Source: Methanobacteriota archaeon
GTDB lineage: Archaea; Thermoplasmatota; Thermoplasmata; SG8-5; JAGLSY01
Length of the DNA: 64,000 nt
Assembly: GCA_020696385.1 (NCBI GenBank)
Contig: JAEHCQ010000003.1
Span: 33,889 to 97,888, forward strand
Direction of reading: 5' to 3'
Made by a program: the position numbers and the translations under genes. Positions 18,138 through 57,057 of the stretch are shown one piece after another (the stretch's first letter is position 1; each line of letters opens with the position of its first letter). Below the pieces are notes generated by a model. The model ran no database searches and had not been told where the DNA came from. It saw only the letters and a list, made by a program, of their open reading frames with translations.

Positions 18138-20774
18138 TCATTTCTGAAACTTTTTCATATTCGTCAGGTATTGCTCTTCCGATATCTTGCCTGAATCATA
18201 GGCTTTTTTCAGGCGTGCGATCTTATCATTATTACTGAGATTCTTGCTCTTTGACTGTTCTGCTAGCTTGGGCGTAGGCTTTGGTTTGGGTGTAGGAGAT
18301 CTCAAAGGCATCACCGGGGCTGCCGCCGGCGCAGGCGCAGGTGCTGGAGCCTCCAAAGGCGCCGATTCCTCCACTTCATTAGTGGCTGGCTGGCTCTTTC
18401 CTCCACCGCGCAGTAATAACAATAATACCAATATGCCGAGTATTATCGCCGCTATCAGGGCCCCATATGCCCATGAAGGAGTTACTGTCTCGATGTTACT
18501 GGCTGTTTCATTCGTTCCAGTGCCTGAAGTGAAAGAATCCTCATCCATGAAGTCAGCGATCCCATCTCCATCTGCATCTGCTGGCTCATCTGTATCGTCC
18601 AGTGGATCTGTTCCGGCCAGTATCTCTTCCGCGTCGCTCCATCCATCATTGTCATTATCCGTGTCTGTGGTGTCTGGTGTTCCATCGCCATCAGTATCGT
18701 TCTCCACCGGATCGATCACAACTGGCGCATCAGAGTCTGGTTTGATAAGTATAGTCAGGTTCACAATGTCTGTTCCCTGGTCATTGTCATCCACCGTCAC
18801 ATTGGCCCAGAAGGTTCCGCTTGCATCTGGAACTCCCCAAAGCAGGCCAGATGTTGAATTGATAGAAAGCCAGGTTGCATTGGTCTCCAATGTCCATTCA
18901 AGCACGTCCCCGTCAATGTCTGTGGCATCCATATCCAGAACATAGGCATCACCTACCATTCCGTCTGGAACCGTCGCATCGTGGATAAAGGGCGGATCCT
19001 GCACATTGTCAACTGTCAAAGTGAAATTGGAGATGTCAAAACCCCCCAGACCATCGGAAACGTTCACCTCTACAAAATAATCTCCAACATCATCATTGCC
19101 AGGTGTTCCCGACAGAATTCCTGTGGTATTGACCATGCTGAGCCAAGTTGCATTTGTGGCCAGGGTCCAGAGCAAGACATCATTGGTTGGATCAATGTCT
19201 GTGGCATCGTAATCCACTGAGTAAGTCATATCTTCAGGAGTCGAGGTTACATCGGCAGTTTCTATCACTGGATCATCATTGACATTATCCACTGCCAGGG
19301 TAAAATTAGTGAAGGTATCGGCATGGCCGCAGTAAAGGTCCAGTGAAATATTAACCCAGTAAGTGCCCGGATCATCATTTGTCGGGGTACCGGAAAGAAG
19401 GCCTGTGACATTATTGAAATTCAGCCAAGTTGCATTGGTTTCCCCTTGCCAAGTCATTGTGTTGGCGACGGGGTAGTTCAGGTAATCTCCACCCACTGTG
19501 TTATAGTTAACGCTATACAACTGGTCCTCCTGAGCAAGCAAAATATTTGCTGGGGTTATCATGGGTTCTTGGTGCAAGCCTTGAAGGTATGGCCTTGTCT
19601 CCCCTTCTTTCATCGCCCAGACACTGGTGAAATTCCAGTTCGCGAAGGTGGATTGGGTCAACATCTGGGGTGTGTTCTTCGGTATTCCATAGGAAGATGT
19701 GGAAACACCCGACGCTCCAGTATCCCAATAGCTGTCTGTCACAGTGCCTGGGATATCCGAAACAAACCCAGATGCATTTGCACCCGATGGTGTGCCTATG
19801 CTATAGCTTGTCCTTATGGTTCCAACATTGTATGAACAAAATCCACCAGCACGGTCACTACAGGTTACATTCCCTGTAGCATAGGAGTCCTCAACAGTAC
19901 CGTGATTACGGCCAACAAATCCACCGTTCCAGGAATAGCTACTGGGTATGTCACCAGTTGCATAGCATTGTTTGATCGTACCGCCATTATAGCCGATAAA
20001 GCCCCCAAGTTGCTCATCAGTTGCCTGCAGGTCGCCAACCGCGAATGAGTTCATAACCAGACCACTGGAAAGGTAACCTATGGCCCCACCGGCAGCATAC
20101 TGGTTGCACTGTACATTACCAAAGGCAGAGCAGCCATTCATGTCAAGGCCTATGCCATGGCCGACAAGACCACCAGAATTGGTATGGGTTGAGGAAGTTG
20201 ACACATTGGTGCTACAATTATCGATCGAGCCACCAGCCTGCCCAACCAAACCCCCTGTGTTCATTCCACCACTGACGTCTCCCTCAACATGACAATTGCT
20301 CAAGGAAGCATAACTCCTTCCAGCCAAACCCCCTGTGTTACCGCCACCGATAATGCTCACTTCTGAAAGAGTGATGTTCTTGATCGTGGCAGAAGCACTG
20401 GCCACCCCAAAGAAACCCTGAAAAGAATATACAGAGCGGTCTATTGTCAATCCGGTCACAGTGAATCCAGCGCCGTCGAACGTACCATTGAAAGTGCTTA
20501 ACCAATCGCCTATAGGATCCCAACCACCACTACCCCATGTTGAGGTGTCACTGGCATCAATATCATTTGCTAGTGTATAATTTGCAGAAACATTGTTCTT
20601 CATATTCTGGAGCTCGACCAAATTGGTTATGATATACGGATCAGCAACTGTCCCTGTTCCGGCAAAGGTCGATTCTTGGTTGTCCAGTATGCTCGATCCT
20701 GCGGGCATGATGATACTCAGGGAAACTGTGCTCAATAACAATGCTATTACTATGGATAATATCTTTTTATTCAT
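18138..20774 (-). CDS. large cell-surface protein: signal peptide, GLUG repeats, three He_PIG-type Ig-like domains, acidic Ca-binding-like repeats, C-terminal TM anchor, cytoplasmic Pro-rich linker + SHOCT-like motif
   Basis: 878 aa. Signal peptide MNKKILSIVIALLLSTVSLSII. Repeated GGLAG/GGLVG GLUG-type units. Three ~95-aa repeats containing TGLLSGTPTNDDPGTYWVNISL-type He_PIG motifs. An acidic stretch DTDGDGTPDTTDTDNDNDGWSDAEE. TM segment AYGALIAAIILGILVLLLLL. Tail ...PAPAPAPAAAP...KIARLKKAYDSGKISEEQYLTNMKKFQK. Dense N-x-S/T sequons. Confidence 0.8.
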   Translation of the reverse strand: MNKKILSIVIALLLSTVSLSIIMPAGSSILDNQESTFAGTGTVADPYIITNLVELQNMKNNVSANYTLANDIDASDTSTWGSGGWDPIGDWLSTFNGTFDGAGFTVTGLTIDRSVYSFQGFFGVASASATIKNITLSEVSIIGGGNTGGLAGRSYASLSNCHVEGDVSGGMNTGGLVGQAGGSIDNCSTNVSTSSTHTNSGGLVGHGIGLDMNGCSAFGNVQCNQYAAGGAIGYLSSGLVMNSFAVGDLQATDEQLGGFIGYNGGTIKQCYATGDIPSSYSWNGGFVGRNHGTVEDSYATGNVTCSDRAGGFCSYNVGTIRTSYSIGTPSGANASGFVSDIPGTVTDSYWDTGASGVSTSSYGIPKNTPQMLTQSTFANWNFTSVWAMKEGETRPYLQGLHQEPMITPANILLAQEDQLYSVNYNTVGGDYLNYPVANTMTWQGETNATWLNFNNVTGLLSGTPTNDDPGTYWVNISLDLYCGHADTFTNFTLAVDNVNDDPVIETADVTSTPEDMTYSVDYDATDIDPTNDVLLWTLATNATWLSMVNTTGILSGTPGNDDVGDYFVEVNVSDGLGGFDISNFTLTVDNVQDPPFIHDATVPDGMVGDAYVLDMDATDIDGDVLEWTLETNATWLSINSTSGLLWGVPDASGTFWANVTVDDNDQGTDIVNLTILIKPDSDAPVVIDPVENDTDGDGTPDTTDTDNDNDGWSDAEEILAGTDPLDDTDEPADADGDGIADFMDEDSFTSGTGTNETASNIETVTPSWAYGALIAAIILGILVLLLLLRGGGKSQPATNEVEESAPLEAPAPAPAPAAAPVMPLRSPTPKPKPTPKLAEQSKSKNLSNNDKIARLKKAYDSGKISEEQYLTNMKKFQK

Positions 20775-20929
20775 GAACTCACCGGTATTATTATGTATTG
20801 GTTATACCAGACATTTGATAAATATTTTTCATAACAATTGTTTTGTTCGTATCTTATGATATATCTAATATATATTGAGAATAAATATATGATATGATGT
20901 CTTATCTATTATAATAAAAGGTGAGGGAT

Positions 20930-23900
20930 ATGAAGAAATTTAGTGTAACCTTGTTAGTGCTAGTAATGATAATGTCCAGCATGGTTCCTATTGTGGGAGC
21001 CAGCGGACAAGATATCGAGACAGTTCCAAATGCAGATCCAAGTCTTGTGGCAGAATGGAACTTCGATGAGGATGCTGGCCAGTGGGTGAATGATACTAGT
21101 GGTAATGACAATAACGGAACTCTTGGAGCAGACGCTGGCTCTGCCGGAGATGATCCCTCTTGGACCACAGGCATATCTGGAACTGCACTTAACTTCGATG
21201 GTATTGATGATTTTGTTAGTGTGGACCATGACCCAACTCTTGATCTTACAACATCCATGACCATATCTGCTTGGATATATGCGGATGATTATGGACAAGG
21301 ACATGCGAGAATTGTGGAAAAATCAGGAACTACCGATTCTATTTGGGTTTTTGGAATTAACTCAAATTGTGTATATTATGGAATATTCAAAGGAGGGGGG
21401 CAGACATATTTTAACAATGCAGGGACGCTGACAAATGGTAATTGGCATCATTTAGTCGGAACCTGGGATGGTTCAACCATGAGGGCTTATGTCGATGGAA
21501 TTGATACCGGGGTCACAGCATCACTGACTTCACCATGTGATAGCTCTGTTCAGCCAATTACATTTGGCAAAAGGGTAGCTCCCACTAATCTTGCATATTT
21601 CAATGGCATCATCGATGAGGCAAAAATATGGGATAGAGCTTTGGATCCAACAGAAGTAATGGACAGTTACGCATCTATCGCAGTATCATATAATATAACA
21701 AATATTTTCCAACTTCAGAATATGAGCATTGACTTAGCTGGCAATTATACTTTAATGAATGACATCGATGCCAGTGTTACCTCCACTTGGAATGGTGGAT
21801 CTGGCTTTGAGCCTGTAGGGACAACTGGGGCCGGGTTCACTGGAAATTTTGATGGAGCTGGTTTTGAAATATCAGATATATTCATCAACCGTCCCCTGAC
21901 AGACTATGCTGGGCTGTTCGGATATATGGATACTGGCAGCGCAATTACTAATGTTGGGATCGTAAACGCCAATATAACAGGCGGCGTCTTTGTTGGTGCG
22001 CTGGCGGGGGAGAAATGGAGCGGAACCACCATAAGCAATTGCTACAGTACGGGCAGCATGGTGAGTGTCAGCATCTCTCCGAACTCTATCGTTGGCGGAC
22101 TGGTGGGACGAAACCAGGGCTTCATCAACAGTTCGTACAGCACGGCAAGTGCGACCGGCAATTTTGACAATGCTGGCGGACTGGTTGGTATAAATGACGT
22201 TGGAACCATCAACAATTGCTACAGCTGGGGCGCAGCTTCCGGCAATTGGAATGTCGGTGGACTGGCAGGTACGAACTACGGGACCATCATCAATTCATAC
22301 AGCAAAGGAACCGCGACAATCACGGGCTCCAATGTCGGCGGGCTGGTTGGCAATAGCATCGGCGGCACAGTAACCAGTTCCTACTGGGATACTATGACAT
22401 CGACACGACCAACAAGCGATGGCGGAACCGGAAAAATCACTGCCGAAATGATGAGCCAGGCAACGTTTGACCCGCCATGGGACTTCAATACCATCTGGGG
22501 AATTGCAGAGGGCAGTACCTACCCTTATCTGAAAGTTACAGCACCTGGGCCAGTTCTTAATGTCAATACAATGGAAAATTTCACAACCATTCAAGAGGCT
22601 ATCGATGCCGTGAACACAACCGACGGTCATACGATAACTGTTGATACTGGCACATATCTTGAAAATGTGGTCATCAACAAGTCCATCAGCCTTAGGGGCG
22701 CGGGATATGCAACAACAATAATCGACGGCCAGCTGCTCGGTGATGTGGTCCTCATCACATCAGACTGGGTAAACTTATCCGGCTTTTCAATGATTAATGC
22801 TGGAGCCGGTGCATGGGATTGGGCTGGTATAGAGCTCGACAATGTTCAGTACTGTAATATATCGGAGAACCGGCCACACCATATGGATTGGGAAGGAATT
22901 TATCTTGAGAATTCTGATTACAATACCCTTTACAATAATTATGTGGATAATAATGGAAGGGGTATGTTCATAAGAGACTCGAATTGGAACGACATCCTGG
23001 ATAATACTGTTGTCGATAATGATTATTCGGTCATGGTGCTGACATGGATTATCGGCTCCAATGACAATACTCTGATTGGAAACATAATAAATGACAATGA
23101 CTACGGTCTATCCATCTCCACCTCCAGAAACACAGTAACTGGCAATAAGTTCTCTGCCAATTACTGGTACAATATTAAAATATCAGGTGGAGGAAATTCC
23201 AATGTGATCTCTCATAATTACATCAATAATACCATTAACGGCGGAACAGACGGGGCCATATATCTTACCAATGCCGGGGCAAACACCATCCATGACAATT
23301 ATATTTTCAATAATCGGTTTGCTCTGATCTTATACCAAACATCAGGTTGCCAGGTATATGACAATCAAATGCTTTCAAATACCGAAGGGATCTTTATCCA
23401 GTATGCACACAACAATGATATCACTGGAAATGTAATATCAAACTCGGTTGTCGGCTTCAGGGCATGGAGTGATTGCAGTGGCAACTACATTGTGAATAAT
23501 AATATCACTGGAAGTACCAACAAGGGATTAGAGTTTGATTCCTCAACACTGAACAATTATATTTACCACAATAATATAATCGGAAATGTACTCCAAGCAG
23601 AAGATAATGGCGCGAGCTTCTGGAATGATAGCTTCCCATCCGGCGGAAACTACTGGTCGGACTGGATAGCTCCAGACGCGATGGGAGGGTTGTATCAGGA
23701 TATTCCGGGAGCCGACGGGATCGTTGATAACCCCTACTCCGTGCCAGGCGGCGGGAACCAGGACGATCATCCTGTCACAAGCCCAGACGGATGGACATCA
23801 ATAATCGCGATGGGGCCGGTACAGAATGTTAATACTGGCGAGAACTTCACAACCATCCAGGAAGCCATTGATGACGCAAATACGCTGGATGGACACACGA

Positions 23901-26900
23901 TAACCGTGGACAGCGGTACTTATGTTGAGAATGTGCTGGTCAATAAGGAATTGACCATTATTGGAAATGGCACTGCAAACACGATCGTCGATGGTGCAGG
24001 CAATAACAATGAGGATGTATTCTTTGTCACTGCAGATAATGTGATGATAACAAATATGAACATAACAAATGGCGGGACCATCGCGGGAGATGCTGGGGTC
24101 GAGGTCAGTGCATCCCATTGTATCATCCAGAATATCAGCTTTGACAATTTCCCATGGGGAGCTGTCAGGCCTCTTGGCGCTGACAATATCACCATAAGGA
24201 ACAATGTGATCACTGGAACAAGCTATTGTGTTTACATTCAATGGAGTGATTACTGTGAGGTCTATGATAATAACATATCGGGAAACAGCCAGGATGCAAT
24301 TTCATTTCAGAATTCCAATTGGAACACTGTGAGAGATAATGAGGTATGGCTGAACGCGGGTTCTGGATTATGGGTGCAGAGTTCTAAGAACAATACATTT
24401 GCCAACAATACACTGGCTCTGAATATTTATGGCATGGACTTCAGTTCAGATTCAGATAATTCAATGATAATTGATAATGATGTAATATCCAATACCTTCA
24501 GCGGGATAAATATATGGTCATCAGACTGGTGCCATATTCAGAACAATACGATATCTGGAAATGATTATGGAGTGAGTATTGGAAATTCCAATAATTGCAC
24601 TATCCTTGAAAATACCATATCTGGCGGCTCCTTTGCCATAAATCTGAACGGATGCTCTGAAACCGATGTCATGGAAAATAATGTAGCAGATTCAAACTAT
24701 GGTATTCAGGCAGATAATTCAAACACAATATTGATAGATGACAATGATATTTATATGACCATTACAAGGGCCATATATTTCTTATCTGGCTCGCATAATA
24801 GCACGGTCACAAACAATCGCATTGATGATTCTGCTGGCCACGGCATCTTCATGTCCGATTCGGCCTACATAACACTGACCAACAATACCATCAGGAACTG
24901 TACAAGCATGAATTGGGCTGGAATTGTGTACTGGAATACGATCTTCACCAATGTATCGAACAACAAGCTACACCACAATTATTGGGGTATCGTGGTCCAG
25001 GGCCAGTCAACTGATAATGATTTCTGGAACAATGAGATAAGGTGGAGTGATCAGCATGGGATCTGGTCAAAGGATGTCGGTGGAAGCCAGGAAAGGAACA
25101 GGTACATTGGAAACAATATCACAGAGAATGGTGTTGGGAACTTATGCGACGGTATCTATCTGGAAGGAATAGATGGTGATAACAATACTGTCGCAGGGAA
25201 CTGGGTCGCGAACAATGGCCGGAATGGTATTAAAATTCAAAACTCCGCAGGCCATCATATATCAGACAATACGATCCTTGACAATACCGGGAATGGTATC
25301 ATGCTAGAGGACTCAGAATGGAACACATTGAATGGCAACAATATATCCCATCACATGAACACAGACCCCAGGGGTATTCTCCTGGACAATAGCCAATGGA
25401 ACATGATAACTAACAACACACTATGGGACAATGGTGATGTGATATGCCTCTTCTGGACATCACAGAACAACACAGTAAAATTCAATGAGATACACGAGGC
25501 TCCTGGCCAGGGGATATATGTGGGAACTGGTTCCACTAACAATATCTTTGAACAGAACACGATCTCCAATATCAACAGTGCTGGAATATATATCCAGTCA
25601 GATGATAATGATATTATTGAAAATAGTTTCTCTTTGGGAACATCCTTTAATGTGTATCTGGACGATTGCAGCGGTGTAACTGTCAGTGGAAATGATATGA
25701 TCGATGGTAGCTTTGGAGTATATGCCACAGACGCACCAAATAACATTGTCGAAGGAAACAATATATCCAATTTAGGGAAAGCTATCTATGCTGAAAACTC
25801 AGATTACATGATGATCGACAATAATGATATGTTCAATAACAATATGGCGATCCATATCTTATCCAGCTCTTTCGATTGCACTGCAAAGAACAACCGAATT
25901 GATGGTTCAACTTCCTACAGCATTGGGATCGAAAACTCTGGCCGCATTGATCTGATGAACAATACCATCCAAAATGGTGTTGCAGGAACAAGCTGGGCGA
26001 TCTTCTTGTGGAACACCAACTGGATCAATATATCGGAAAATACAATGTTCAATAATGAAGGCGGAATAAGGATGCAGTCGAATTGTCACAATAACACAAT
26101 CTGGGACAATATCATATCCAGTAATGTAAATGGCATTTACCTGGAATTGACAAGAGACTGTAGTATCTACCACAATGACTTCATTGCCAATACCATCCAG
26201 GCCTATGATGATAGCTGGGGCAATAACTCCTGGGACAATGGCTACCCATCTGGCGGTAATTACTGGAGTGATTATGGAGGTGCAGATGTCATGTGTGGAC
26301 CATTGCAGGATACCTGGGGTAGTGACAGCCTGGGCGACACCCCATACACAAGTATCATCAGTGGAACAAATCAGGATAATTACCCGCTCTTGCACCCATC
26401 AAACTACATAGATGCTGTCGATCCAGTATCGCAGATCGACACAATATCACCCTATTGGTGGAATATCTCACCATTCGCAATAACCGCGAATGTCAGCGAC
26501 CCAGGAAGCGGAATTGACCACATCGAACTCTGGTACAGTTACGAGGGTGGCGCATGGACCTTCTTCGGCAACACGACCAGCTTTTCATGGACATGGGATT
26601 TCACATGGCCTGATGGAGAAGGGGATTATGATTTCTACTCCATTGCCATTGATAATTCTGCCAATGTCGAGAATGCTCCTGGTATCGCGGATGCAGGAGC
26701 TTATTATGATAGCACTGCTCCGATCATCAGTGCAGGGGATGATACAACTATCAACTCGGCCTATCAGCAGGATTCCTCCTACTTCGAGATAGGATCTGGC
26801 ATAGGCAATAATTCATGGACTGTTTTATCTGGCCCAGGCAATATCACTTTCACAAGCCAGTGGTCGGAAGATCCGTGGATCAGCGCGGACATGGATGGCC

Positions 26901-28741: not shown

Positions 28742-28801
28742 TTATTAGCTTTCAGTATCCCATCTTCTGAGCATCGATCAAGATCCAATACCCTGGCATC
28801 T

Positions 28802-29251
28802 CTATTTATCAAGAACAGGAAGTCTCACTTCCTCTTTCACTATGTTCAGAACTATCTGGGTGTATGTTCTCTCCACGAATTCCATACTGGATATCCACTT
28901 GATGAACTTGTTCAATTCGCGGCGGTTATGGAACCTGGCCACGATCATCGAGTCCCAATCCCCAGTGATATCATAGACATTGACAACATTGGAATTCTTT
29001 GAGATATTATCTTGGACGGAAATCATTTTTCCCCTGGATATCCGCATTCCAATGACAGCCAGCAGATCGAATCCGAACTTCTGCGGATCGAGAACTGGCG
29101 CATAGCCCTTGATGACTCCATCATCTTCCATCCTGCGCACGCGGTTGGCCACAGTGCTCATGGAAACACCCAGCTCCTTCGCCATCTGCCTGAAGCTCTT
29201 TCGGGCATTCTCATTCATAGACGCGATTATTTTGAGATCGAGATCATCCAT
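28802..29251 (-). CDS. lrp: Lrp/AsnC-family transcriptional regulator
   Basis: 149 aa with HTH (LDLKIIASMNENARKSFRQMAKELGVSMSTVANRVRRME) plus a RAM domain. Divergent from glnA, an arrangement seen in other archaea. Confidence 0.85.
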   Translation of the reverse strand: MDDLDLKIIASMNENARKSFRQMAKELGVSMSTVANRVRRMEDDGVIKGYAPVLDPQKFGFDLLAVIGMRISRGKMISVQDNISKNSNVVNVYDITGDWDSMIVARFHNRRELNKFIKWISSMEFVERTYTQIVLNIVKEEVRLPVLDK

Positions 29252-29405
29252 GCAGGATAATGGGCTTTAACATTTATTAAATTAACTGTATATTTTATAT
29301 ATAATTGATTCATTTGACCATTAAATTATGAATATATCATTCAAATGAATCAATTATTTTCAATATATTATAAGTATCATTATTTCATGTTAGGAGAATC
29401 GGTCC

Positions 29406-32926: not shown

Positions 32927-33063
32927 ATAGTTGAGGAGCTATTTGAGTTCATGGAGTTTGTAGAGTTAACTCCAAAAACTCCCAACTCACTAAACTCTAT
33001 GAACTCATTTATTATATCTTATCAATAGTAAACTATATGTGGGTGTGTGTGTTTTTCGTGCCG

Positions 33064-44968: not shown

Positions 44969-45009
44969 CATTGGCTTTGACTTCAGTGTCCTGTCTAGAA
45001 TATTCCAGA

Positions 45010-48000: not shown

Positions 48001-51000
48001 GCTGTCCTGGTCCAATGCCAACTCAAAGCCATTGCCAGAGAACGTGAAGTTCTCAATGGTGAAGGTACTGTCAACACCAAAAACACCGGTCGGAGAGTTG
48101 GTTATGGTATTCAGAGACATTGGAGTGGTATAATCAGAACCCCTTACACCCAGTCCAAAAGCCGTAAGTGCGTTCATTGTGTTGCCAGTTATGAGATTGT
48201 CACCAGAGTCCCAAGAATAGATACCTATGGGGCTGCTGGTTATAATGTTCGATATTACAGTGTTGCCGAATGTCCCATCAGACAATCTGATACCTTCAGA
48301 GATCGCGCCGGTAATAGTATTGCCAGATACAAGATTTCCAGTGGATGTAAGAGTGACTAAGACCCCTATCATTGAAGAGCTCATCAAATTGTTTGTAACA
48401 TAGTTCGAATCTGAATCACTTAAACTGATATCATTCTGGGCATTGCTATTGAATGTTGAACCGTTGATCACATTGTAATTTGACGATTGTAATCTTATGC
48501 CTCGCCATAGGCTTGAGGTGATCGTGGAGCCCTCGATGGTATTGTAATCACAATTAAAGGCAAACACCCCCCCACTGTCACTGTTCGTGATCACAGTATT
48601 GATAATGGTGTTGTAATCGGCATCACGCAGGTACAATCCATATCCCTCATCGCTATTGGATATCGTCGAGTTGATTATGTAGTTGTTATCTGACCTAAGG
48701 TACAATCCATGAGCATTGCCAGTGAATGTCGCATTGTAGAGAAATACGCCGTTTGCGTATACTTCCACACCTTCATTTGACCAATCCCAGCCGGCATCCC
48801 TAATGGTACTGTTCTCCACCCTGAAGCCAGCACCACTCATCACATTGATAAGATATCCAAAGGTCGTGTTGGACATCACAGTGCTTCCTTCGATTAGATT
48901 GAAGGTACCTGTGGAGTTCACCTGGATAAGATACTGGCCATGGAAGGCATTGTTCATTCTCAGCTCGGTCTCGTCAAGTATCAAAGAACCACCGCTCTCG
49001 ACCCAAATATCACCAGTCTGGTTCCAGAAGGATGGATCCACAGTTAGTGTTCCGCCATTCCTTATGACCAGCTGGCCAGTGAGATTGAATGATGAGTCCC
49101 TTATCAGGACATCGACACCATCGACGGTGACATCCTCGAAGTACGTCATGTCATCAAGATGTAATTCATCGCCATCACTTGCATTGGCGATGGCTCCCTG
49201 TAGTGTATCATACCACAATCCCTGGTCCCAATTGAGAACATGCTGGTCAGGATGTAACATATTCCATCCGAATGGGTTGGTATGGGGGAAATAATCAGTT
49301 GAGTCACCGTCGATCACGTATGGAACATCGACAAAGCCATCCCAGTTTATGTCCGGAGATGTCCAGGTGTCGAAATAATTACCACCCTGGGCATACCCTA
49401 GATTGTAGGTGTTGGCTGCGAAAGAATCCAATATATGCACAGTGTTATTGATGAAATTATTGTGGAATATGTAATTCCCATTGAAGCTGCCAGGTGATGT
49501 CACATAAATACCATTGGTTCCATCCCTGAAGGTATTATTGCTGATCTCATTGCCATTGGCAGTATTTGCTGAGCCACCATTCCATATCCCATTACCATTG
49601 CCAGATACCATGTTCCATCTTATCAGATTGTTATCTGAGTAATCCCAGATCCTGAATCCAATGCCTGAATTCAAAATGGTATTGTTGTTTATATCACAAA
49701 GATCCGTATTGACTATATTTATTCCATTGGCCGCATTGTCATAAAAGTCATTATATCGGACAATAACGCCATCGGCACCATTGAGCATCAATCCGTCCAA
49801 ACCATTCCCGTATATCATGTTCTGGAAGACCGTGGCTCCATCGGAGAACAGGTAAAGGCCAGTTCCGGTATTGTTGTAGATCGTGTTATTGGCTATATAA
49901 TGCGGTGATGTGGAATCCATCTGGATACCCTGACCACCATTGAATCCAACGGTATTACTCTCGATGATAGCATCATCAGGATAAGATCCCTCAAAGTAAA
50001 TTCCTGCGCCAGTGTTGTTGTGGACGTAATTATCGATCACCTCTGCCCAATCAGCATACCAGTAGAAGTTGATACCCTCTTCAGAATTGTAAGATATCTC
50101 ATTTCTATATATCTTATTGGAGTCGCCGTGGTAAACGTAGATACCGATCCTATTGTATTGAATAGTATTGTCAAGTATCTTGTTATTATCACAGTCATCA
50201 TCTTCCAGTGCTATGCCATCTACAGTGCTGTTCGTCACGGTGTTATTGTGTATCGTGTTTAATGTAGAGGTTCCGTACATTGATAATCCATTGGCCGCAC
50301 TGTTATTGATAGTGTTCCAGGCAATTATATTGGATGATCCTCTGAAGCGCATTCCATAGCTGTTCGAATCCAATATATCATTATCTCTGAAGATATTCGA
50401 GTTACCTGTGGAGATGATACCATATAGATTGGTATTGATGATCGTGTTATTATGAACCTTTGTTGAGTCACTGGCACTGTACATATCGATACCATAGGAG
50501 TTCGTATCGCTGATCGTATTATGGGAAATGATATTGTTGGACGCTCCGGTGAAGTATATTCCAGTTGCCCCGCCTGTTATGGTATTGTTGTCGACAATAC
50601 AATTTGTTGGACCATCGATCTGTAATATGTTCTGAGCAGTCGAGGAGGCCGAGAGGTCATTCCAGGTCACATTGTTCCACTGGCTAACACTGGTTATCCT
50701 GAGCTGACCAATATTGTCAATGATATCGTTTTGTGTAATGGTGTTAGAATCAGAACCATCAGCAACATAAATTCCCAGGTTGCCATTGTCATATACCATA
50801 TTGTTCTCGATCAGGTTGAAATTTGAATTCCAGACAACTCTGATTCCAGTCAATATATTTGAGCCCATTGAACTATTGGCTACATAACTGTAGTTTGAAT
50901 TATAGTATCCAAGGCCAAAGTAATTCCCGGTAACATTGACACTTTCCACTTTGACGTGTTCCGCATACCATATGGCAAGACCAGCATCATTGCCAGAACT

Positions 51001-54000
51001 ACCACTGTTGGTGATCTTAAACCCAGAGATATTGGCCCAGTCCGATGTGATCTGAGCAGAAGTTCCGGTTCCCAGAGCATCGATGGTGGTATTATCCATG
51101 CTGGCTCCGATCAATGTCAGAGCTTTGCTGACCACGACATTCTCATAATACTCACCCTCGCCCACAGTTATCGTGTGGCCGTCAAGGGTATCTGCATCGT
51201 CTATGGCCATCTGGATGGTCAAGAACTGTTCGCCAGAATCTGTATTGATGACCGAGCCTATGGCATTGGCAAGTGGGAAAGCATCCATATTCAGGCCAAT
51301 GACATATGGTACATCCACTATGCCATTGAGATCCGCATCTGGTGTCTGCCAGTCATTCCAATAATTACCCTGAGAGAGTATGCTGGATCCCCATGCATTC
51401 TCATCCAGCTCATAGACCTGGACACCATTGTCAATGAAATTGTTATGATAAAGGATATTGTCATTTCCTTCTTCAATATAAATCCCATATCCGAGATTAT
51501 CTTGGATCGTGTTATTTGTAAACATGTTGGTACGGTTCACTTGTAATGTAGCAGCTATCTCAGGTATGGCTCTAAGGAAAGGATAGGATGTGCCTTCATT
51601 GATATCCCAAACAGTAGTGAAGTCCCAGCCTGTGAATGTTGCTTCTTGCTGCATCTCGACTGTTGTCTTTCCAGTTCCGTCTGCACTAACCAGGTTCCCT
51701 GATGCATCTGTATCCCAGAAGCAATTGGTGACCGTGCCTATGATATCATATCCGACAAAGCCTCCCACAAAGGAGGTGCCTGTAGCATTGCCCGTGCTGT
51801 AGGAGTTCATGACCAAGCCTTCATTTCTTCCAACGAAGCCGCCAACTGAGCCACCGACCCCACTGGCACTGCCTGTGCTGTAGCAATTCGTTATTGAATC
51901 ATCACTCCATCCGACAAAGCCTCCAATATAATCCTCTCCATTGGCACTACCTGTACTGAAGCTGTTCATGATCGAACCCCAGTTCTCTCCAGCAAAGCCA
52001 CCGATGGAATCTCCTGTTCCGGTGGCATCGCCTGTACTGGAGCAGTTCTCGATAGTACCGGCATCGTTCACTCCAATGAAACCGCCAATTGAGAGGTCTC
52101 CAAGGACGATAGTAGTGCTGGAGCATTCTGTTATCAAACCAGCATCATTCCATCCTACAAAGCCACCTACTCCCTGAGAACCGCTCGCATTACCTGCGCT
52201 GAAGCAATTTGTTATCGTACCACCTGTATTTCTTCCAATGAAGCCGCCAACTCTGTGTGTAGTTCCTGTAATATCCCCAGTTGAATTGGAGTTCGTTATT
52301 GTTCCTTGGCCTAGACCCACAAGGGCTCCAACAAACTGATCACCAGTTATGTTGCAGTTGTCCAATATCAGATTGGTAACGGATGAAGGGATACCCAGAT
52401 AACCGAAAAGTCCAACATAATCTGTTGCTGGCCTATTGATGAATAGTCCATCGATCTCATATCCTTGGCCATCAAGTGAGCCTGAGAATTGGGTTGCAAG
52501 AGTTCCAATTGGTTCAAAGCCAGCTCCTGCATTCCATGTTGATGTGGCACTTGCATCGATATCATTCATCAAGTAGTAATCCACAGTCAGATCCAAACTC
52601 ATATTTTGGAGTTCAAAGACATTGAATATCATATTGGATGGTGCATTTGTTATTTGGAATGGATAACCGCTTCCATCCATTACTGCCCATACAGTAGTGA
52701 AATCCCAGCCAGTGTATGTCGATTGCTGTTGCATCTCGGCCGTGGTCTTTCCGTAAAGATCGACAATTCCTGTGTTGGATCCAAAGCCAGTCATCGATCC
52801 AGATGTATCCGTGTCCCAGAAACATGGGTCGATCGTGCCTTCATTCTCACCTGCGAATGCTCCAATATCTGAATTGCCGGTTGGAATACCCGTGCAATAG
52901 CTATTGATGATAGTTCCGAATATAGAGCCAACAGTGTTGATGCCAACAAAGCCACCGACCTTATTGTATCCGTTCACATCACTAAGACTGTATGAATTAT
53001 TGATGTAGTATTTGTTGGTTCCAGCAAAGCCGCCGTAACCATTGCCGGTGGTAGTATTGCCAACAGTGCCTGTGCTGAAACTTTGGACTATCGGGCCTTC
53101 ATTGAATCCAACGAAGCCGCCGACATCTAAAGCACCGTCAACATCCCCAGTGGCCGAGCAATCCTTGATCTCCATGATACCGAAAGATTTGGAGTGAATT
53201 CCCACAAAACCACCTATGGATGAGGAGAATGTAGAGCTAACGACCTTTGTGCTACTTGAGCTTCCGGTTATCTCGCCATAATTCTCTCCAACAAAGCCAC
53301 CGATCTGACTATTTCCATATAATAAGCCACCAGCACTGCAATCTGTGATAGTTCCAGTGTTAAGTGCCGTTAAGCCTCCTGCCATACCTCCAGAGGTTTG
53401 ATTTAAGAAACCAAATGTAGAGCTATCAGATATTGTCGAGCTCCAGGCCTGGCCAACTAAACCACCGAGGTATGATTTTCCTTCGATGTAGATATTGGTC
53501 ATGTGAACATTTTGGATCGTCGCGCCCCAAGTGTATCCAAACAATCCAAGATCACTCTCACCTGGACGAACCATTATCAAGCCGTTAATAGTGTATCCTT
53601 GACCATCCAGAGTACCCTGGAATGGACCACTTGAAGATCCAACAGTGACGAAACCCAGACCACCATTCCATGTTGATGTAGCACTTGCATCGATATTATT
53701 CATTATCTTATAGCTGGCTGTCAGATCATCATTCATTTCCTGAAGCTCATTGACATTGGTTATCTGATATGGATCACCAGGAGTTCCCGTGCCAGTACCT
53801 GTGAAGAAAGGTGCAGGAGTTGGAATTGGCTGTGAAGCAGTTCCTACATTTGTCTGACCTATCGTGCTAAATGGCGCATTGTAAGTTCCATTTATGAATA
53901 TTCCATCACCAGTATTTCCGACGATCGTGTTCCTGCTGATATCATTCACAACACCACTGTGGGTTGCGAGATCGTAAAGGTAGAGACCATCGCCATTGTT

Positions 54001-57000
54001 ATTCAATATCATGTTGTTTGTAATATCAATGTTAACGGAATAGTTGACAGCTATCCCATCATATCCGCTGTTACCGACAGTGTTGTTCCTCACTGGCGTG
54101 TCTTGAGCTTCCAATAGCCAGATACCGAAGTGACTGCTATTCCAGACCTCATTGTTCTCCACGGTATTGTTGTGGTGTGGGTTGTCATAAGTTCCGCCAT
54201 AATCATTCAGAATAGCAATGCCAGTCCAATTGCTGTTCGTGACATTATTTCCAATGATTTTTGTATTGTCTACCTCATATACTCCCCATAACAAACCAAT
54301 TCCATAGTTCCTGCTATCCGAGATAGTATTGTAAAGTATCTGATGATCGCTACCCTGGCCGAAATAAATACCGTGGCTGTTATTCGTGATATTATTGTAT
54401 CTAACTATATGCCCCCAGGTATTTCCACCGCCGATTCCGATCCCACCATTATCATAAACATCATTGTACTGATAAATACCATTGTTAGCATAACTCATAT
54501 AAGCACCATATATGTCATTGTTATGAATGGAATTGTTCTCTATGGTATTATAGTTACAACCATAATCATTTCCGATGCCGAAATAATAGTTATCAAATAC
54601 GTCATTATCCGCTATAACATTGTAATCTGAATATCTTTCAATATGGATACCACCATCAAAACTGCCCATACCCAGTCCATTGTTGTAGACTGTGTTTTCC
54701 CTTACAATATTGTAATCTGTTATACCAGTGAAAGAATACAGGTTTATGCCGTCCTCGTCATTATCGAAGACGGTGTTATTTGAAACTGTGTTATATCCTG
54801 CCTGATAGAGTAATATTCCGTTCTCCCTTTGCGAGTCAGAGACAGTGTTATTATCAATGATGTTCCATGATCCAGTAGATACCTGAATTCCATTGTATTC
54901 ACAGAAAGATATCGTATTGTTCAATATCATATTGGAGCTCGTGGACTGAACTCGGATTCCATCATAATCGCTGGCTGTTATTATATTACCCTCAATGGTA
55001 TTTGAGCTTCCAGCAGATATCCTGATACCATGCTGAGATCCGTACATGATATTGTCATACACATGAACATTGGTCACAGTGTCCAGGTTAACACCAGCAT
55101 CTGCACTTAAGCTGGTTCCGCCATTGGTGACATTGAATCCAGTTATGTTCACCCAGTTGGACTGGATATCCATAACTTTACCGACTCCACTGCCGTCAAT
55201 TGTTGTATTGTCCCTGCCAGCTCCCTGTATTGTCAGGGTCTTGTTGACTATGACATTCTCTGTGTATGTGCCTTCTGCAACAATGATCGTGTGCCCATCC
55301 ACTGTGTTTGAATCATCAATAGCTTCCTGGATATCTGAGAATGTATCACCAGTATCGATGTTTTCAACGGGGTCTGCTAAAAATGGCCAGCCACTTGGAG
55401 ATACCCAGGGGAAGTCGTCCTGGCCATTGGTGGAAAAGATGGTGTTCCAGGAACCTGCAGATGTCCATTCAATACCCATGTAAGGCGTGTCGCCTATGCC
55501 ATCGCCGTTACCATCAGCACCTGCATAGTCATCCCAGTAGTTACCACCAGATGGAAGTCCATTATCCCAGAATGGATTGCCGCTGTCAAAGGCATGGAAT
55601 CCAAGGTTGTTAATGAAATTATTATTGAAAATGACGGCTCCGATGTTCGGGCCATCCACAGTAATACCATTACCAGCGTTGCCGGAAATGGTATTGTTCT
55701 CTATGAAAGCATTATCCATATTAGCTCCGATATGAATACCATGTTGCAATGTACCAGTTACATTAAATCCAGATATCTCGACATTTGGTGCACCGATATA
55801 GAAACCAATATTGTTGACACCCTCGCCATCAAGAATGGTATTGTCCTTGTTCTCTCCGGTTATGATCAGTTCCTTGTCGATATTGACAGATTCATTGTAT
55901 GTTCCGGATTCGACAAATATCTCGTGGCCATCCAATGTCTCAGAAGCATCAATGGCTTCCTGAATGGTCCTGTATGTGAAACCAGTGTCCAAATTACTCA
56001 CTGGAGTCACCCAATAATTTGCCACCATCCAAGGATAAGCATCCGACCCAGTGCCTGGAATCGCTCGTGCTGTGTCTCCAATGCCATCTGAATTCGCATC
56101 TACGCCAATATAATCATCCCAATAATTACCACCAGTTGGGAGAGATTGAGACCATATTTGGGTGCCAGAGCCTTCGGAGTAAGCATGCATGGCATTACCA
56201 ATGAAATTATTGTTGTATATCTGGGTCTGAGGACCTTGTGAATTTGAAATAAAGTATAAATGGATACCGTATTGGCTGGCGCCAGAGATTGTGTTTCCAA
56301 TTATCCGATTATTGTGGGTGGCACTGAGATAAATGCCTAATGTGCCGCCAGTGATCGTGTTCGATTCGATGATGTTTCCAATACTTGGAAATCTTTGAAT
56401 GTACATACCATATGTATTGGATGTGAATGTGTTATCCTTAATTGAGGTGTAGGATGATTCCCAATCCCATATGCCTCTTGCATTGCTAGTCATTGTATTA
56501 TTGTTTATGTCATTGTGATCGGCTCCCACATATAAGGCAACAGCAGATGAATAACTAGATGTGAATGTATTTCCTGTGATCACATTGTAGGTGGCTCCTT
56601 GCAGCAATATACCCTGGCCATTGTCATGAATGATATTGTTCTCTATCAAGCAGTGATCGAAATTGTTAATGTAAATTCCACCATTGAGATTATATTGGTA
56701 TGAATTCTGTATTTTGAGATCCTTCACGGTCACATAGTCTGCCTGTATGTTCACAGTGTGCGTGACTAGGCCACCATCTATGATAGTGGTCAACGGATCC
56801 TCTCCCTGAAGTGTGATGGCTTTATCGATCACCACATTCTCAAAGTATGTTCCCGCACTGACCAGGATCGTATGCCCGTCTAGTGTCTCAGAGGCATCAA
56901 TAGCCTCCTGGATCGTGTTATAGCCAAAACCTGTGTCAATATTCTCCACAAGATATAGGGCATTGTCTTCATCTCCAAGATTCATCCCTATAACACTCAC

Positions 57001-57057
57001 TGGCATTATCATCATTACTGCTAATACAATTCCTAATATCTGTTGAACTGATCTCAT
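45010..57057 (-). CDS. giant cell-surface protein (~4015 aa): signal peptide, >=6 right-handed beta-helix modules, two blocks of GLUG repeats, ~780-aa Trp-rich N-glycosylation-sequon-dense alpha-helical repeat stalk, TM anchor, cytoplasmic zinc-ribbon tail
   Basis: SD ggagagg lies 6 nt before ATG 57057 (MRSVQQILGIVLAVMMIMPVSVIG); the ORF track's longer start at 57084 is less likely. Beta-helix modules begin with ...FTTIQEAIDASETLDGHTILVSAGTYFENVVIDKAITLQG. GLUG blocks include GGLVGQAWSS..., IGGFVGENYG..., VGGFIGRNTGG.... The C-terminal third is repetitive (...AYWTDFNATWATWDAQFDSYWSYFNTT...LNITLQ...) with ~430-bp DNA periodicity around 46.1-47.4 kb. The TM segment is IIMLLLIIVIILLLVNTVI. The tail is KCAYCGVSGKTGSSDGEGDFVCNDCADSMKTSEEE, a CxxC...CxxC arrangement. 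Confidence 0.85.
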   Translation of the reverse strand: MRSVQQILGIVLAVMMIMPVSVIGMNLGDEDNALYLVENIDTGFGYNTIQEAIDASETLDGHTILVSAGTYFENVVIDKAITLQGEDPLTTIIDGGLVTHTVNIQADYVTVKDLKIQNSYQYNLNGGIYINNFDHCLIENNIIHDNGQGILLQGATYNVITGNTFTSSYSSAVALYVGADHNDINNNTMTSNARGIWDWESSYTSIKDNTFTSNTYGMYIQRFPSIGNIIESNTITGGTLGIYLSATHNNRIIGNTISGASQYGIHLYFISNSQGPQTQIYNNNFIGNAMHAYSEGSGTQIWSQSLPTGGNYWDDYIGVDANSDGIGDTARAIPGTGSDAYPWMVANYWVTPVSNLDTGFTYRTIQEAIDASETLDGHEIFVESGTYNESVNIDKELIITGENKDNTILDGEGVNNIGFYIGAPNVEISGFNVTGTLQHGIHIGANMDNAFIENNTISGNAGNGITVDGPNIGAVIFNNNFINNLGFHAFDSGNPFWDNGLPSGGNYWDDYAGADGNGDGIGDTPYMGIEWTSAGSWNTIFSTNGQDDFPWVSPSGWPFLADPVENIDTGDTFSDIQEAIDDSNTVDGHTIIVAEGTYTENVIVNKTLTIQGAGRDNTTIDGSGVGKVMDIQSNWVNITGFNVTNGGTSLSADAGVNLDTVTNVHVYDNIMYGSQHGIRISAGSSNTIEGNIITASDYDGIRVQSTSSNMILNNTISFCEYNGIQVSTGSWNIIDNNTVSDSQRENGILLYQAGYNTVSNNTVFDNDEDGINLYSFTGITDYNIVRENTVYNNGLGMGSFDGGIHIERYSDYNVIADNDVFDNYYFGIGNDYGCNYNTIENNSIHNNDIYGAYMSYANNGIYQYNDVYDNGGIGIGGGNTWGHIVRYNNITNNSHGIYFGQGSDHQILYNTISDSRNYGIGLLWGVYEVDNTKIIGNNVTNSNWTGIAILNDYGGTYDNPHHNNTVENNEVWNSSHFGIWLLEAQDTPVRNNTVGNSGYDGIAVNYSVNIDITNNMILNNNGDGLYLYDLATHSGVVNDISRNTIVGNTGDGIFINGTYNAPFSTIGQTNVGTASQPIPTPAPFFTGTGTGTPGDPYQITNVNELQEMNDDLTASYKIMNNIDASATSTWNGGLGFVTVGSSSGPFQGTLDGQGYTINGLIMVRPGESDLGLFGYTWGATIQNVHMTNIYIEGKSYLGGLVGQAWSSTISDSSTFGFLNQTSGGMAGGLTALNTGTITDCSAGGLLYGNSQIGGFVGENYGEITGSSSSTKVVSSTFSSSIGGFVGIHSKSFGIMEIKDCSATGDVDGALDVGGFVGFNEGPIVQSFSTGTVGNTTTGNGYGGFAGTNKYYINNSYSLSDVNGYNKVGGFVGINTVGSIFGTIINSYCTGIPTGNSDIGAFAGENEGTIDPCFWDTDTSGSMTGFGSNTGIVDLYGKTTAEMQQQSTYTGWDFTTVWAVMDGSGYPFQITNAPSNMIFNVFELQNMSLDLTVDYYLMNDIDASATSTWNAGAGFEPIGTLATQFSGSLDGQGYEIDGLFINRPATDYVGLFGYLGIPSSVTNLILDNCNITGDQFVGALVGLGQGTITNSNSTGDITGTTHRVGGFIGRNTGGTITNCFSAGNASGSQGVGGFVGWNDAGLITECSSTTIVLGDLSIGGFIGVNDAGTIENCSSTGDATGTGDSIGGFAGENWGSIMNSFSTGSANGEDYIGGFVGWSDDSITNCYSTGSASGVGGSVGGFVGRNEGLVMNSYSTGNATGTSFVGGFVGYDIIGTVTNCFWDTDASGNLVSADGTGKTTVEMQQEATFTGWDFTTVWDINEGTSYPFLRAIPEIAATLQVNRTNMFTNNTIQDNLGYGIYIEEGNDNILYHNNFIDNGVQVYELDENAWGSSILSQGNYWNDWQTPDADLNGIVDVPYVIGLNMDAFPLANAIGSVINTDSGEQFLTIQMAIDDADTLDGHTITVGEGEYYENVVVSKALTLIGASMDNTTIDALGTGTSAQITSDWANISGFKITNSGSSGNDAGLAIWYAEHVKVESVNVTGNYFGLGYYNSNYSYVANSSMGSNILTGIRVVWNSNFNLIENNMVYDNGNLGIYVADGSDSNTITQNDIIDNIGQLRITSVSQWNNVTWNDLSASSTAQNILQIDGPTNCIVDNNTITGGATGIYFTGASNNIISHNTISDTNSYGIDMYSASDSTKVHNNTIINTNLYGIISTGNSNIFRDNDILDSNSYGMRFRGSSNIIAWNTINNSAANGLSMYGTSTLNTIHNNTVTNSTVDGIALEDDDCDNNKILDNTIQYNRIGIYVYHGDSNKIYRNEISYNSEEGINFYWYADWAEVIDNYVHNNTGAGIYFEGSYPDDAIIESNTVGFNGGQGIQMDSTSPHYIANNTIYNNTGTGLYLFSDGATVFQNMIYGNGLDGLMLNGADGVIVRYNDFYDNAANGINIVNTDLCDINNNTILNSGIGFRIWDYSDNNLIRWNMVSGNGNGIWNGGSANTANGNEISNNTFRDGTNGIYVTSPGSFNGNYIFHNNFINNTVHILDSFAANTYNLGYAQGGNYFDTWTSPDINWDGFVDVPYVIDGDSTDYFPHTNPFGWNMLHPDQHVLNWDQGLWYDTLQGAIANASDGDELHLDDMTYFEDVTVDGVDVLIRDSSFNLTGQLVIRNGGTLTVDPSFWNQTGDIWVESGGSLILDETELRMNNAFHGQYLIQVNSTGTFNLIEGSTVMSNTTFGYLINVMSGAGFRVENSTIRDAGWDWSNEGVEVYANGVFLYNATFTGNAHGLYLRSDNNYIINSTISNSDEGYGLYLRDADYNTIINTVITNSDSGGVFAFNCDYNTIEGSTITSSLWRGIRLQSSNYNVINGSTFNSNAQNDISLSDSDSNYVTNNLMSSSMIGVLVTLTSTGNLVSGNTITGAISEGIRLSDGTFGNTVISNIITSSPIGIYSWDSGDNLITGNTMNALTAFGLGVRGSDYTTPMSLNTITNSPTGVFGVDSTFTIENFTFSGNGFELALDQDSHITTLNSTFNKASINYMDALSTLEIQWFMDVYVRDDMMQPVPGAQVEIADIFNTPLYNVNADANGYARWNIVTEYVEDQASQTANTPHLAIANNGLLMGSTVASIDMSKEVTVTLSSTTPPTNVDVTTGLQYDANGVEYDIMASVTQNGQALVPDAFTNVSVTIFDDTMTKIVDNASMNILDASFGLYTYSDSIPAAGTYFVAVNAQIAGFNYIGITSFEVVGWIQTITDINATVTANNALIQAYWTDFNATWATWDAQFDSYWSYFNTTTDGLNITLQDQIAIVYTQMNDFEGNMTALLNDLDADLGQLDINVTNMDAVMQAYFQSMWDEHNDTQALHGLYWADWNMTSAALGADIDFLNATLLQVQLDLASLDATANIILAQLLAHRDDFNLTWDNWHLYFQAYQNYLNTTMDGLNLTIQAEGASIRSQMSGFEANITLLLSDLSGNLGQLDANLTSMDAAMQNYFQIMWGQHNDTHTLQSLYWTSWNTTMTQIQNDLNFANMTQLAMQSSLNDLRAEFTVFWAHYNTTMAAQTSQINDWFNTTWADASSQTSQVNDWFNMTWGDIMAQTSQTNAWFNTTWTDMAATESYISGMLSSQDLNISAMDASIASMRFAMDSGMTNLSMENMMTYGQISAYWADFNTTLDLMQADVDYVNATLLQVQIDLAWLNMSVSDLQADIDYLNMTVASLYSDLWQVEGNLTSLIDGLNLTFMDELARVDFALYSQIMNQTADLTLLLDGLSMDLDGLNITMQDGLASALIDMIAALDADTAYLDSRIVDLENMVDGFYSDLNNSLAGLRELLVSHDENMTADLVLLDDTIRDLNSLTLAELTQRLNWISANLSSHDIGALLYLQALNQDIMDFQDNINATLADIDDTLAELAKLDEIRADLFTLAQSLDEAEASVMDKVGAESSEQQGNQNIIMLLLIIVIILLLVNTVISMRKGGSDKEKPEPAKEDKCAYCGVSGKTGSSDGEGDFVCNDCADSMKTSEEE

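Follow-up and report, generated by a model that had tools for sequence, protein, structure and literature searches.

The adhesin-like proteins (ALPs) of Methanobrevibacter and Methanosphaera are very long, Asn/Thr-rich proteins that combine beta-helix and Ig-like (Big) domains with a transmembrane (TM) anchor, mostly at the N-terminus, and occur as many paralogues per genome; they form a descriptive class, not a homology family, and cytoplasmic modules have not been described for them (PMC11532034). Archaeal S-layer proteins are anchored by a C-terminal TM segment with a short tail of a few basic residues (bioRxiv 10.64898/2026.08.21.746120). Here we analyze three giant surface proteins, called A, B and C, encoded on a 64,000-nucleotide stretch of contig JAEHCQ010000003.1 (GenBank assembly GCA_020696385.1; hereafter the window, to which all coordinates refer) from an uncultured archaeon of the class Thermoplasmata. 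Each is predicted to be anchored by one C-terminal TM helix, beyond which it carries a different cytoplasmic tail. The interpretation that we favor, and regard as fairly probable, is that they are anchored adhesin- or S-layer-like paralogues whose swappable cytoplasmic tails serve as docking or clustering handles.

Like the ALPs, protein B has beta-helix domains, Ig-like domains and a TM anchor, and protein C has beta-helix domains and a TM anchor with no Ig-type domain matched by Pfam; protein A has GLUG and He_PIG domains. Unlike in the ALPs, the anchor is C-terminal, GLUG is the shared module, and the tails contain a ribbon, a hairpin or an acidic segment. With Staphylothermus tetrabrachion, Pyrobaculum PySLP and the SlaB-type stalks, the giants share a signal peptide, a giant glycosylated ectodomain, a membrane-proximal stalk and a C-terminal TM helix, and the 711-residue proline-free stalk of protein C may resemble the coiled-coil stalk of S-layer proteins. 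They differ from S-layer proteins in having tails of 52–90 amino acids (aa) with folded modules, and sequence searches of the PDB with the GLUG module and with the stalk of C returned no match. Eukaryotic type I adhesion receptors (integrins, cadherins and the BspA-like proteins of Trichomonas) also join a large adhesive ectodomain to one TM segment and a short variable tail, which docks intracellular partners, and the giants may work likewise; this is an analogy only, with no homology. The building blocks found here, namely GLUG, NosD, He_PIG, the C-terminal TM anchor, zinc ribbons and SHOCT, are all known. What is new is their combination, together with the finding that tail modules on giant surface proteins of archaea are conserved and can be exchanged, and a literature search for such tails on archaeal surface proteins found no description of them.

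Architecture and anchoring of the three giants

The three giant open reading frames (ORFs) proposed in the initial annotation are real, with lengths of 878, 2603 (given there as 2604) and 4015 aa, and among 15 billion collected proteins each is a singleton when the threshold is 90% identity. Their features, and the position of a fourth surface protein of the window, protein D, are as follows. Hydropathy is given as the Kyte-Doolittle value over 19 residues (KD19), and models are from AlphaFold2 (AF2).

Protein A
18138..20774, minus strand: ORF, 878 aa
20700..20774, minus strand: signal peptide
19527..20651, minus strand: GLUG module, residues 42-416
18735..19517, minus strand: three He_PIG/Big_9 domains
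18540..18707, minus strand: TSP3-like DxDxDG acidic repeats (TSP3 repeat match sub-threshold)
18411..18476, minus strand: C-terminal TM helix (SWAYGALIAAIILGILVLLLLL; KD19 2.94; helix in AF2)
18141..18410, minus strand: predicted cytoplasmic tail, 90 aa, made up of RGGGK, a Pro/Ala/Lys-rich disordered linker and a SHOCT-like helix-turn-helix (18144..18233)

Protein B
20930..28741, plus strand: ORF, 2603 aa from ATG (2606 from GTG at 20921)
21200..21658, plus strand: Laminin_G_3 domain, following an N-terminal signal peptide
21674..22597, plus strand: GLUG module, residues 249-556
About 22598..26590, plus strand: NosD/beta-helix blocks
About 26618..28390, plus strand: PKD/Big_5 Ig-like region
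28391..28525, plus strand: poly-Asp stalk
28526..28582, plus strand: C-terminal TM helix (MWIIIILIAALVIGAQLFL; nearly identical in the orthologue described below)
28583..28738, plus strand: predicted cytoplasmic tail, 52 aa, poly-Glu/Asp, starting MKGKKQ and ending EGEIPES

Protein C
45010..57057, minus strand: ORF, 4015 aa from ATG (4024 from GTG at 57084)
53893..56949, minus strand: NosD block 1, following an N-terminal signal peptide
51565..53775, minus strand: two tandem GLUG modules, residues 1095-1467 and 1476-1831
About 48058..51528, minus strand: NosD block 2
45238..47370, minus strand: proline-free, sequon-rich stalk, residues 3230-3940
45172..45228, minus strand: C-terminal TM helix (IIMLLLIIVIILLLVNTVI; KD19 3.4; helix in AF2)
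45013..45171, minus strand: predicted cytoplasmic tail, 53 aa, made up of SMRKGG, a charged spacer, a putative C4 ribbon CAYC-x16-CNDC (45043..45114) and an acidic end

Protein D
33037..34530, plus strand: ORF, 497 aa

A shared architecture had been proposed for all three giants, comprising GLUG repeats, NosD-like beta-helix modules, Ig/PKD/He_PIG domains and acidic D-x-D-x-D-G repeats. The GLUG part of this proposal holds, as GLUG (PF07581) passes its 20.5-bit gathering cut-off in A (62 bits), B (23.8 bits) and C (95.3 bits), and local BLAST delimits a GLUG module of ~360 aa that is common to the three at 32–35% identity, with one copy each in A and B and two in C. The remainder is shared more loosely than claimed. 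Pfam assigns to A three GLUG and three He_PIG domains along with Big_9; to B Laminin_G_3, GLUG, eight NosD/Beta_helix stretches, two PKD domains and Big_5; and to C fifteen NosD/Beta_helix stretches and three GLUG, leaving its last ~1,000 residues unmatched. The NosD/Beta_helix families (PF05048, PF13229) score 351/307 bits in B and 461/436 bits in C, with no Pfam match in A at E ≤ 0.01, and by local BLAST the NosD blocks are common to B and C only. Ig-type domains are present in A (He_PIG, Big_9) and B (PKD, Big_5); C has the 711-residue stalk in their place. DxDxD[GN] repeats number three in A and 13 in D; B has none, only one DTDGD and a generic poly-Asp stretch, and none stands in a repeat context in C.

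The stalk of protein C is membrane-proximal and free of Pro (0%), with a Gly content of 3.8% and a sequon density of ~6 per 100 aa. Its end, just before the TM helix, is modeled by AF2 as helical, and a periodicity of 3.6 residues reaches significance in the last 240 aa alone (z 2.7), the heptad signal over the whole stalk being non-significant. Self-BLAST detected no internal repeats at E ≤ 1e-3, despite segments that are alike by eye. The segment looks like a glycosylated helical stalk, possibly a coiled coil.

Each giant contains exactly two hydrophobic segments, one N-terminal and signal-like and one C-terminal TM segment with a KD19 of 2.7–3.4, in agreement with the signal peptide and single C-terminal TM helix originally proposed. 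The 15 residues before the TM helix contain no Lys or Arg in A and B and one in C, and the 15 residues after it contain two to four (RGGGK, MKGKK, SMRKGG). N-glycosylation sequons occur at 2.5–3.1 per 100 aa of ectodomain, while the tails contain one in A and none in B and C. The same charge bias was found in 65 C-terminally anchored relatives, a set made up of the relatives retrieved with A and with the C-terminal region of C plus the window's own surface proteins, where Lys and Arg average 2.88 in the 8 residues past the TM helix versus 0.45 in the 8 residues before it. Because an exported, glycosylated ectodomain with a signal peptide and a single TM segment leaves the C-terminus inside, hydropathy, charge and sequons together support the prediction that the tails of A, B and C are cytoplasmic.

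Protein D, which has a signal peptide, a Big_5 domain and its 13 calcium-type DxDxD[GN] repeats, is anchored in the same way by a C-terminal TM helix with a tail of merely KGPPQ (5 aa), and provides an internal control. In NCBIfam, this protein also weakly matched MtsC, a MYXO-CTERM cell-cell cohesion protein, as well as OmpL47-type domains. About 65 of 125 relatives had a TM-plus-tail C-terminus. Of 118 GLUG giants, most of them bacterial, it was present solely in the two archaeal ones, the bacterial proteins having C-terminal ends of type IX secretion system or other types. Surface proteins of this lineage therefore appear to be anchored, as a rule, by a single C-terminal TM helix.

The claim of a distinct short tail on each giant was borne out, with changes to the assignments. 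In A, the Pro-rich linker is present as described. SHOCT (PF09851), to which the end of the tail had been assigned, scores 17.3 bits with the whole protein and 21.5 bits (E 2e-4) with the tail alone, below the gathering cut-off of 27. The end carries the pattern G-x-I-S/T-x-E-E-Y, and a single-sequence AF2 model of the tail gave a 58-residue linker with a predicted local distance difference test score (pLDDT) of 50–63 followed by two confident helices (residues 848-860 and 866-877 of 878; pLDDT 87–94). In this it is like SHOCT and SHOCT-like bihelical domains, which often lie next to TM segments, in being a short two-helix module at the extreme C-terminus; it is unlike SHOCT in its sub-threshold score. 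The tail of B is poly-Glu/Asp as stated (29 of 52 residues are Asp or Glu), and no profile matched it.

The zinc ribbon proposed for C has a spacing of CxxC-x16-CxxC, correcting the 18 residues given initially, and its best Pfam scores, 13.8 bits to DZR_2 (E 0.054) and 13.3 bits to DUF7573 (PF24458; E 0.085), are below cut-off. The x16 spacing and a sequence signature described below are those of DUF7573 repeats. The ectodomain of C contains 17 Cys in ~3,900 residues (0.44%), compared with four in the 53 residues of the tail, all in two CxxC pairs. AF2 modeled the tail as a disordered spacer, then small beta-hairpins and a helix (pLDDT 68–83), so that two CxxC knuckles, conserved in the orthologue, lie on small modeled beta-hairpins, as in a C4 site. 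Both profile-based assignments thus fail the curated cut-offs, an outcome that the initial annotation itself had named as counting against its proposal, and survive only in part, as a "SHOCT-like hairpin" in A and a "C4 ribbon" (a putative metal site) in C; these labels are retained because of structure prediction and orthologue conservation. No such ribbon has been described from the cytoplasmic terminus of a surface protein of 4,000 aa.

Conservation and recurrence of the tails

The region is syntenic in a sister metagenome-assembled genome (MAG), GCA_020697715.1 ("Methanobacteriota archaeon SF.bin51", contig JAEHCO010000007.1). The orthologue of C there, P0146, is 4143 aa long; its identity to C is 78% across the N-terminal 1,070 aa and 83% across the C-terminal 1,500 aa. 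Its tail, SMRKGGKDKDKSEPAKENECTYCGVSGKAGSTDEEGDFVCNDCAEELKISDDEE, keeps all four Cys and the x16 spacing, with identities of 20/24 in the ribbon core, 14/19 in the spacer and 5/10 at the end. The ratio of nonsynonymous to synonymous substitution rates (dN/dS) is 0.34 in the tail of C (p = 0.016 versus neutrality), 0.08 in its TM helix and 0.135 in its stalk, compared with 0.03 for the control gene GlnA. The orthologue of B (3177 aa) keeps the acidic tail, with its start MKGKKQ and end EIPES alike; dN/dS is 0.49 in the tail, not significantly below 1 (p = 0.09), and 0.27 in the ectodomain. The orthologue of D keeps the KGPPQ tail. Because the C ribbon, the B acidic tail and the D KGPPQ are each kept in the syntenic sister MAG, the tails of these three proteins do not look like noise, and that of C is under measurable purifying selection.

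Protein A has no positional orthologue, as the sister contig begins at the orthologue of B. The sister MAG has three tandem A-like genes with a TM helix (TPTWAYGALIAAI...) nearly identical to that of A and tails of 35–45 aa that are composed of Glu, Pro and Ala and lack SHOCT. These genes lie at 2741-12261 of JAEHCO010000001.1, encode 1064, 1236 and 833 aa with TSP3-like and N-x-T-rich stalk repeats, and form a local paralogue array. The closest relatives of A with the same architecture (~820 aa, 40% identity) end 12 aa past the TM helix, and the linker and hairpin of A are therefore a lineage-specific add-on.

The center of C was observed to differ between the sister genomes. Around 49500-53900 (residues ~1050-2500, GLUG/NosD), global alignment with P0146 gave 4–48% identity, so that this part is replaced or rearranged, and P0146 carries a Laminin_G_3 domain. 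The adhesive center of protein C appears to be subject to cassette-like diversification between the two MAGs.

Tails of the 65 anchored proteins fall into recurring classes: 32 have fewer than 35 aa, 8 are long poly-acidic tails, another 8 contain CxxC...CxxC, 4 are Pro/Gln-rich and 13 are long tails of other kinds, with lengths in relatives of up to 200 aa. Six of the CxxC...CxxC tails stand behind an acidic linker and one behind a Pro/Gln linker, and the eighth is that of C itself. Relatives' tails with CPxCG-x9-10-CxxCG pass Zn_ribbon_3 (PF13248) or Zn_Ribbon_1 (PF13240); for Zn_ribbon_3 (gathering cut-off 27), the scores are 28.1 bits in P0013, 32.7 in P0017, whose tail carries two ribbons, and 33.9 in P0020. 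The same tail classes recur on different ectodomains among the relatives. The reverse was seen in P0083 and P0109, whose ectodomains are near-twins and whose tails are unlike: P0083 has a Pro/Gln linker and a SHOCT-like start that is ended by the contig end, and P0109 has two winged helix-turn-helix (wHTH) domains (HTH_HVO_0163_N, 54.6 bits; HTH_24, 46.7 bits). This pair shows module swapping behind a constant anchor. P0109, a 1397-aa protein from a JGI metagenome, consists of a signal peptide, repeated DIFYR-type modules, five He_PIG domains, one TM segment and the two cytoplasmic winged helices, and looks like a membrane-tethered transcription factor with a giant ectodomain.

Close relatives of the C terminus were few. 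A search with the last 996 aa of C retrieved two relatives only; P0146 came from the search with B. That search, made with the whole of B, returned mostly bacterial GLUG giants and few archaeal relatives. An exhaustive HMMER search of 1.84 billion representatives with the TM helix and tail of C found only C itself and P0250, P0146 having presumably been merged into C's own 50% cluster in this phmmer search. P0250 (287 aa) contains five tandem DUF7573-type C4 ribbons with the same x16 spacing (DUF7573 38.2 bits versus a cut-off of 30.2). Its ribbons read KCYICGKEH..TDGKGNYICxxC and share with the C ribbon the signature CxxCG...DG.G.[FY][IV]CxxC. As a side observation on the distribution of GLUG giants, two Thermoplasmata MAG "chromosome" records, CP070629.1 (3.58 Mb) and CP070751.1 (5.16 Mb), are unusually large for the class and both contain them.

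Interpretation of the tails and its alternatives

Under the favored interpretation, A, B and C would be paralogous, N-glycosylated, type I membrane-anchored surface proteins. Each would be exported by its N-terminal signal peptide, display GLUG/beta-helix and Ig-like or helical-stalk modules outside the cell, and be held by the single C-terminal TM helix, a Lys/Arg stop-transfer cluster and then the cytoplasmic tail. The tail repertoire would comprise minimal tails, poly-acidic tails, an acidic or Pro-rich disordered linker with a C4 zinc ribbon, and a linker with a SHOCT-like two-helix hairpin. In the latter kinds, the disordered spacer would hold a small knob, able to bind protein, nucleic acid or membrane, directly below the bilayer, so that the tail may tie the giant ectodomain to a cytoplasmic or inner-leaflet partner for anchoring, positioning or turnover; tails acting as catalytic signaling domains are unlikely. 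The data show the reading frames, the domains, the logic of the topology, the conservation in the sister MAG and the recurrence of the tail classes; any partner and any role of the tails are inferred. Docking or clustering at the inner face of the membrane is the most economical account of these observations and fits small ribbons as protein or nucleic-acid binders. It also fits the prediction that SHOCT-like domains tether other domains to the inner leaflet (PMC11237479).

Several observations weigh against this interpretation. The SHOCT and ribbon assignments are below the Pfam cut-offs, the SHOCT-like end of A has no orthologue support (the sister A-like genes having plain Glu/Pro tails), and two more distant relatives of the C stalk have no ribbon. 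The tails diverge faster than the ectodomains and TM helices, constraint on the B tail is not significant, no partner gene for the tails could be identified among the housekeeping neighbors of the giants in the 64-kb window, and the topology is based on hydropathy and charge rules. The function of SHOCT is itself unknown, oligomerization having been tested and not supported (PMC3581485). Much of this would also be expected if the tails were inert, that is, low-complexity, disordered leftovers behind a stop-transfer anchor in which the SHOCT-like and CxxC features are incidental. We consider this unlikely overall, yet a serious rival, for B in particular. In half of the anchored relatives the tail is under 35 aa long, and in D it is 5 aa, so a long tail is not needed for anchoring; the tails evolve 2–2.5 times faster than the ectodomains (0.34 versus 0.135 in C, 0.49 versus 0.27 in B), and their content is not kept among more distant relatives. 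Against inert tails are the concentration of two CxxC pairs in the 53 residues of the C tail compared with the Cys-poor ectodomain, and the retention of these Cys, their spacing and the ribbon core in the orthologue with a dN/dS significantly below 1. Ribbons that pass Pfam recur independently on other ectodomains, the A hairpin is modeled with a pLDDT of ~90 from a single sequence, and even the B orthologue keeps the terminal EIPES.

Outside-in signaling was suggested in the initial annotation beside anchoring to an intracellular partner. In such signaling, ligand binding or a mechanical load on the ectodomain would alter the tail, by clustering or regulated proteolysis, and transcription or another cytoplasmic process would be the target of the ribbon, hairpin or wHTH, in the manner of ToxR/CadC-type regulators or those released by regulated intramembrane proteolysis. 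In its favor, zinc ribbons and helix hairpins often serve to bind nucleic acids or proteins. Nucleic-acid binding has been raised for SHOCT as well (PMC3581485). P0109, which couples a He_PIG ectodomain and TM helix to two wHTH domains, is the one suggestive case, and the sole non-orthologous match to the C ribbon is P0250 with its five tandem ribbons. Nothing direct was found in A, B and C, as Pfam detected no HTH, other DNA-binding or enzymatic domain in them, no site-2 protease, kinase or regulator adjoins the giants, and the B tail is purely acidic, with no sign of dimerization switches. Outside-in signaling is thus very unlikely for the three giants, and ToxR/CadC-like membrane-tethered regulators were rejected as a description of them, only the relative P0109 having the HTH. 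A broader version, which we hold to be quite unlikely, is that the tails represent a lineage-wide modular trans-membrane coupling in S-layer-poor or wall-less Thermoplasmata, the knobs linking adhesins to the cytoskeleton, to chromatin/DNA or to a regulator and relaying surface engagement. Such coupling may be seen, by analogy, as an archaeal counterpart of integrin-like or membrane-tethered-transcription-factor signaling, with P0109 as the explicit transcription-factor version.

The remaining alternatives concern the anchor itself. Archaeal surface glycoproteins are frequently processed in the ArtA/PGF-CTERM manner, and "PDF" stands directly before the TM helix of B, so that the TM helix and tail could be a sorting signal, cut off in favor of a lipid or wall anchor, and the tails would never be present on the mature protein. 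Such signals end a few basic residues past the TM helix, whereas the tails here run to 52–90 aa and those of relatives to as much as 200 aa, and they contain folded modules that are under selection. PGF-CTERM, PEF-CTERM and other archaeosortase-type models (NCBIfam/TIGRFAM) had no match at E ≤ 1 in the last 140 aa of A, B, C or D, and an archaeosortase gene was not found within the window, which covers 64 kb of a 261-kb contig; an archaeosortase signal, which the initial annotation had likewise discounted, was rejected, and we regard a cleaved anchor as highly improbable. It is also scarcely credible that the hydrophobic segment does not span the membrane or that the tails face outward. The membrane potential can drive the translocation of strongly acidic segments, which would suit such a topology. 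An exported ectodomain with one 19–22-residue segment of KD19 2.7–3.4 places the C-terminus inside, however, as do the positive-inside bias in the 65 relatives and the near absence of sequons from the tails, and the wHTH domains and zinc ribbons on relatives' tails are intracellular domain types.

Genomic neighborhood and implications

The genes around the giants are housekeeping genes (GlnA, serine-pathway enzymes, UppS, GluRS, the glycine cleavage P-protein, Pit/PhoU, XseA and RsgA), and no dedicated operon, partner gene or protease was found near the giants within the window; a dedicated operon or neighborhood partner was accordingly rejected. Two other membrane proteins of the window contain modules resembling those of the tails.

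3547..3852, plus strand: 101-aa protein that has one TM helix and, after it, a SHOCT-like C-terminus
60768..62564, plus strand: multi-TM protein of 598 aa that contains a long charged linker, the ribbon CPKCG-x9-CFVCG, TPR repeats and, at its C-terminus, HhH

The 101-aa protein scores 24.6 bits to SHOCT (gathering cut-off 27, E 2e-5) and 17.7 bits to DUF1707, and appears to be a stand-alone version of the TM-plus-SHOCT module of protein A. The 598-aa protein is kept at the same position in the sister MAG (597 aa) and would be a further membrane protein of this genome with an intracellular acidic-linker-plus-ribbon segment; that it interacts with the other ribbon or acidic tails is pure speculation.

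The window is of archaeal origin, as follows from its complete archaeal 23S rRNA gene (14874-17861, minus strand); it also carries archaeal tRNAs. The window's glutamine synthetase clusters with proteins named "Thermoplasmata archaeon". The 23S rRNA starts 276 bp downstream of the protein A stop on the same strand and has no 16S or 5S gene nearby, as in an unlinked rRNA operon; a listed ORF inside it (17163..17870) is spurious. Between the start of C and the gcvP genes, a 120-nt tRNA match (57448-57567, minus strand) that Rfam alone returned (44.7 bits), ARAGORN having missed it, probably represents an archaeal tRNA with an intron. Directly downstream of C lies a 275-aa protein with staphylococcal-nuclease and lamin-tail domains (43991-44818, minus strand); the sister MAG has only a 1.1-kb gap without genes at this position, so this gene seems to be an indel between the two genomes.

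Almost nothing is known of how archaea that lack a rigid wall link their huge surface proteins to the cell interior. The archaeal surface anchors described so far finish with a few basic residues, compared with the conserved and swappable tails found here, which carry a ribbon, a hairpin, an acidic segment or, occasionally, wHTH domains. Even if the tails are inert, these results define the anchoring mode and the fast-evolving cassette structure of a set of adhesin-like giants. The tails also provide small, synthesizable baits of 24–50 residues for intracellular partners in uncultured Thermoplasmata, and their conservation and exchange suggest that the coupling of surface to cytoplasm in archaea is possibly more elaborate than has been assumed.

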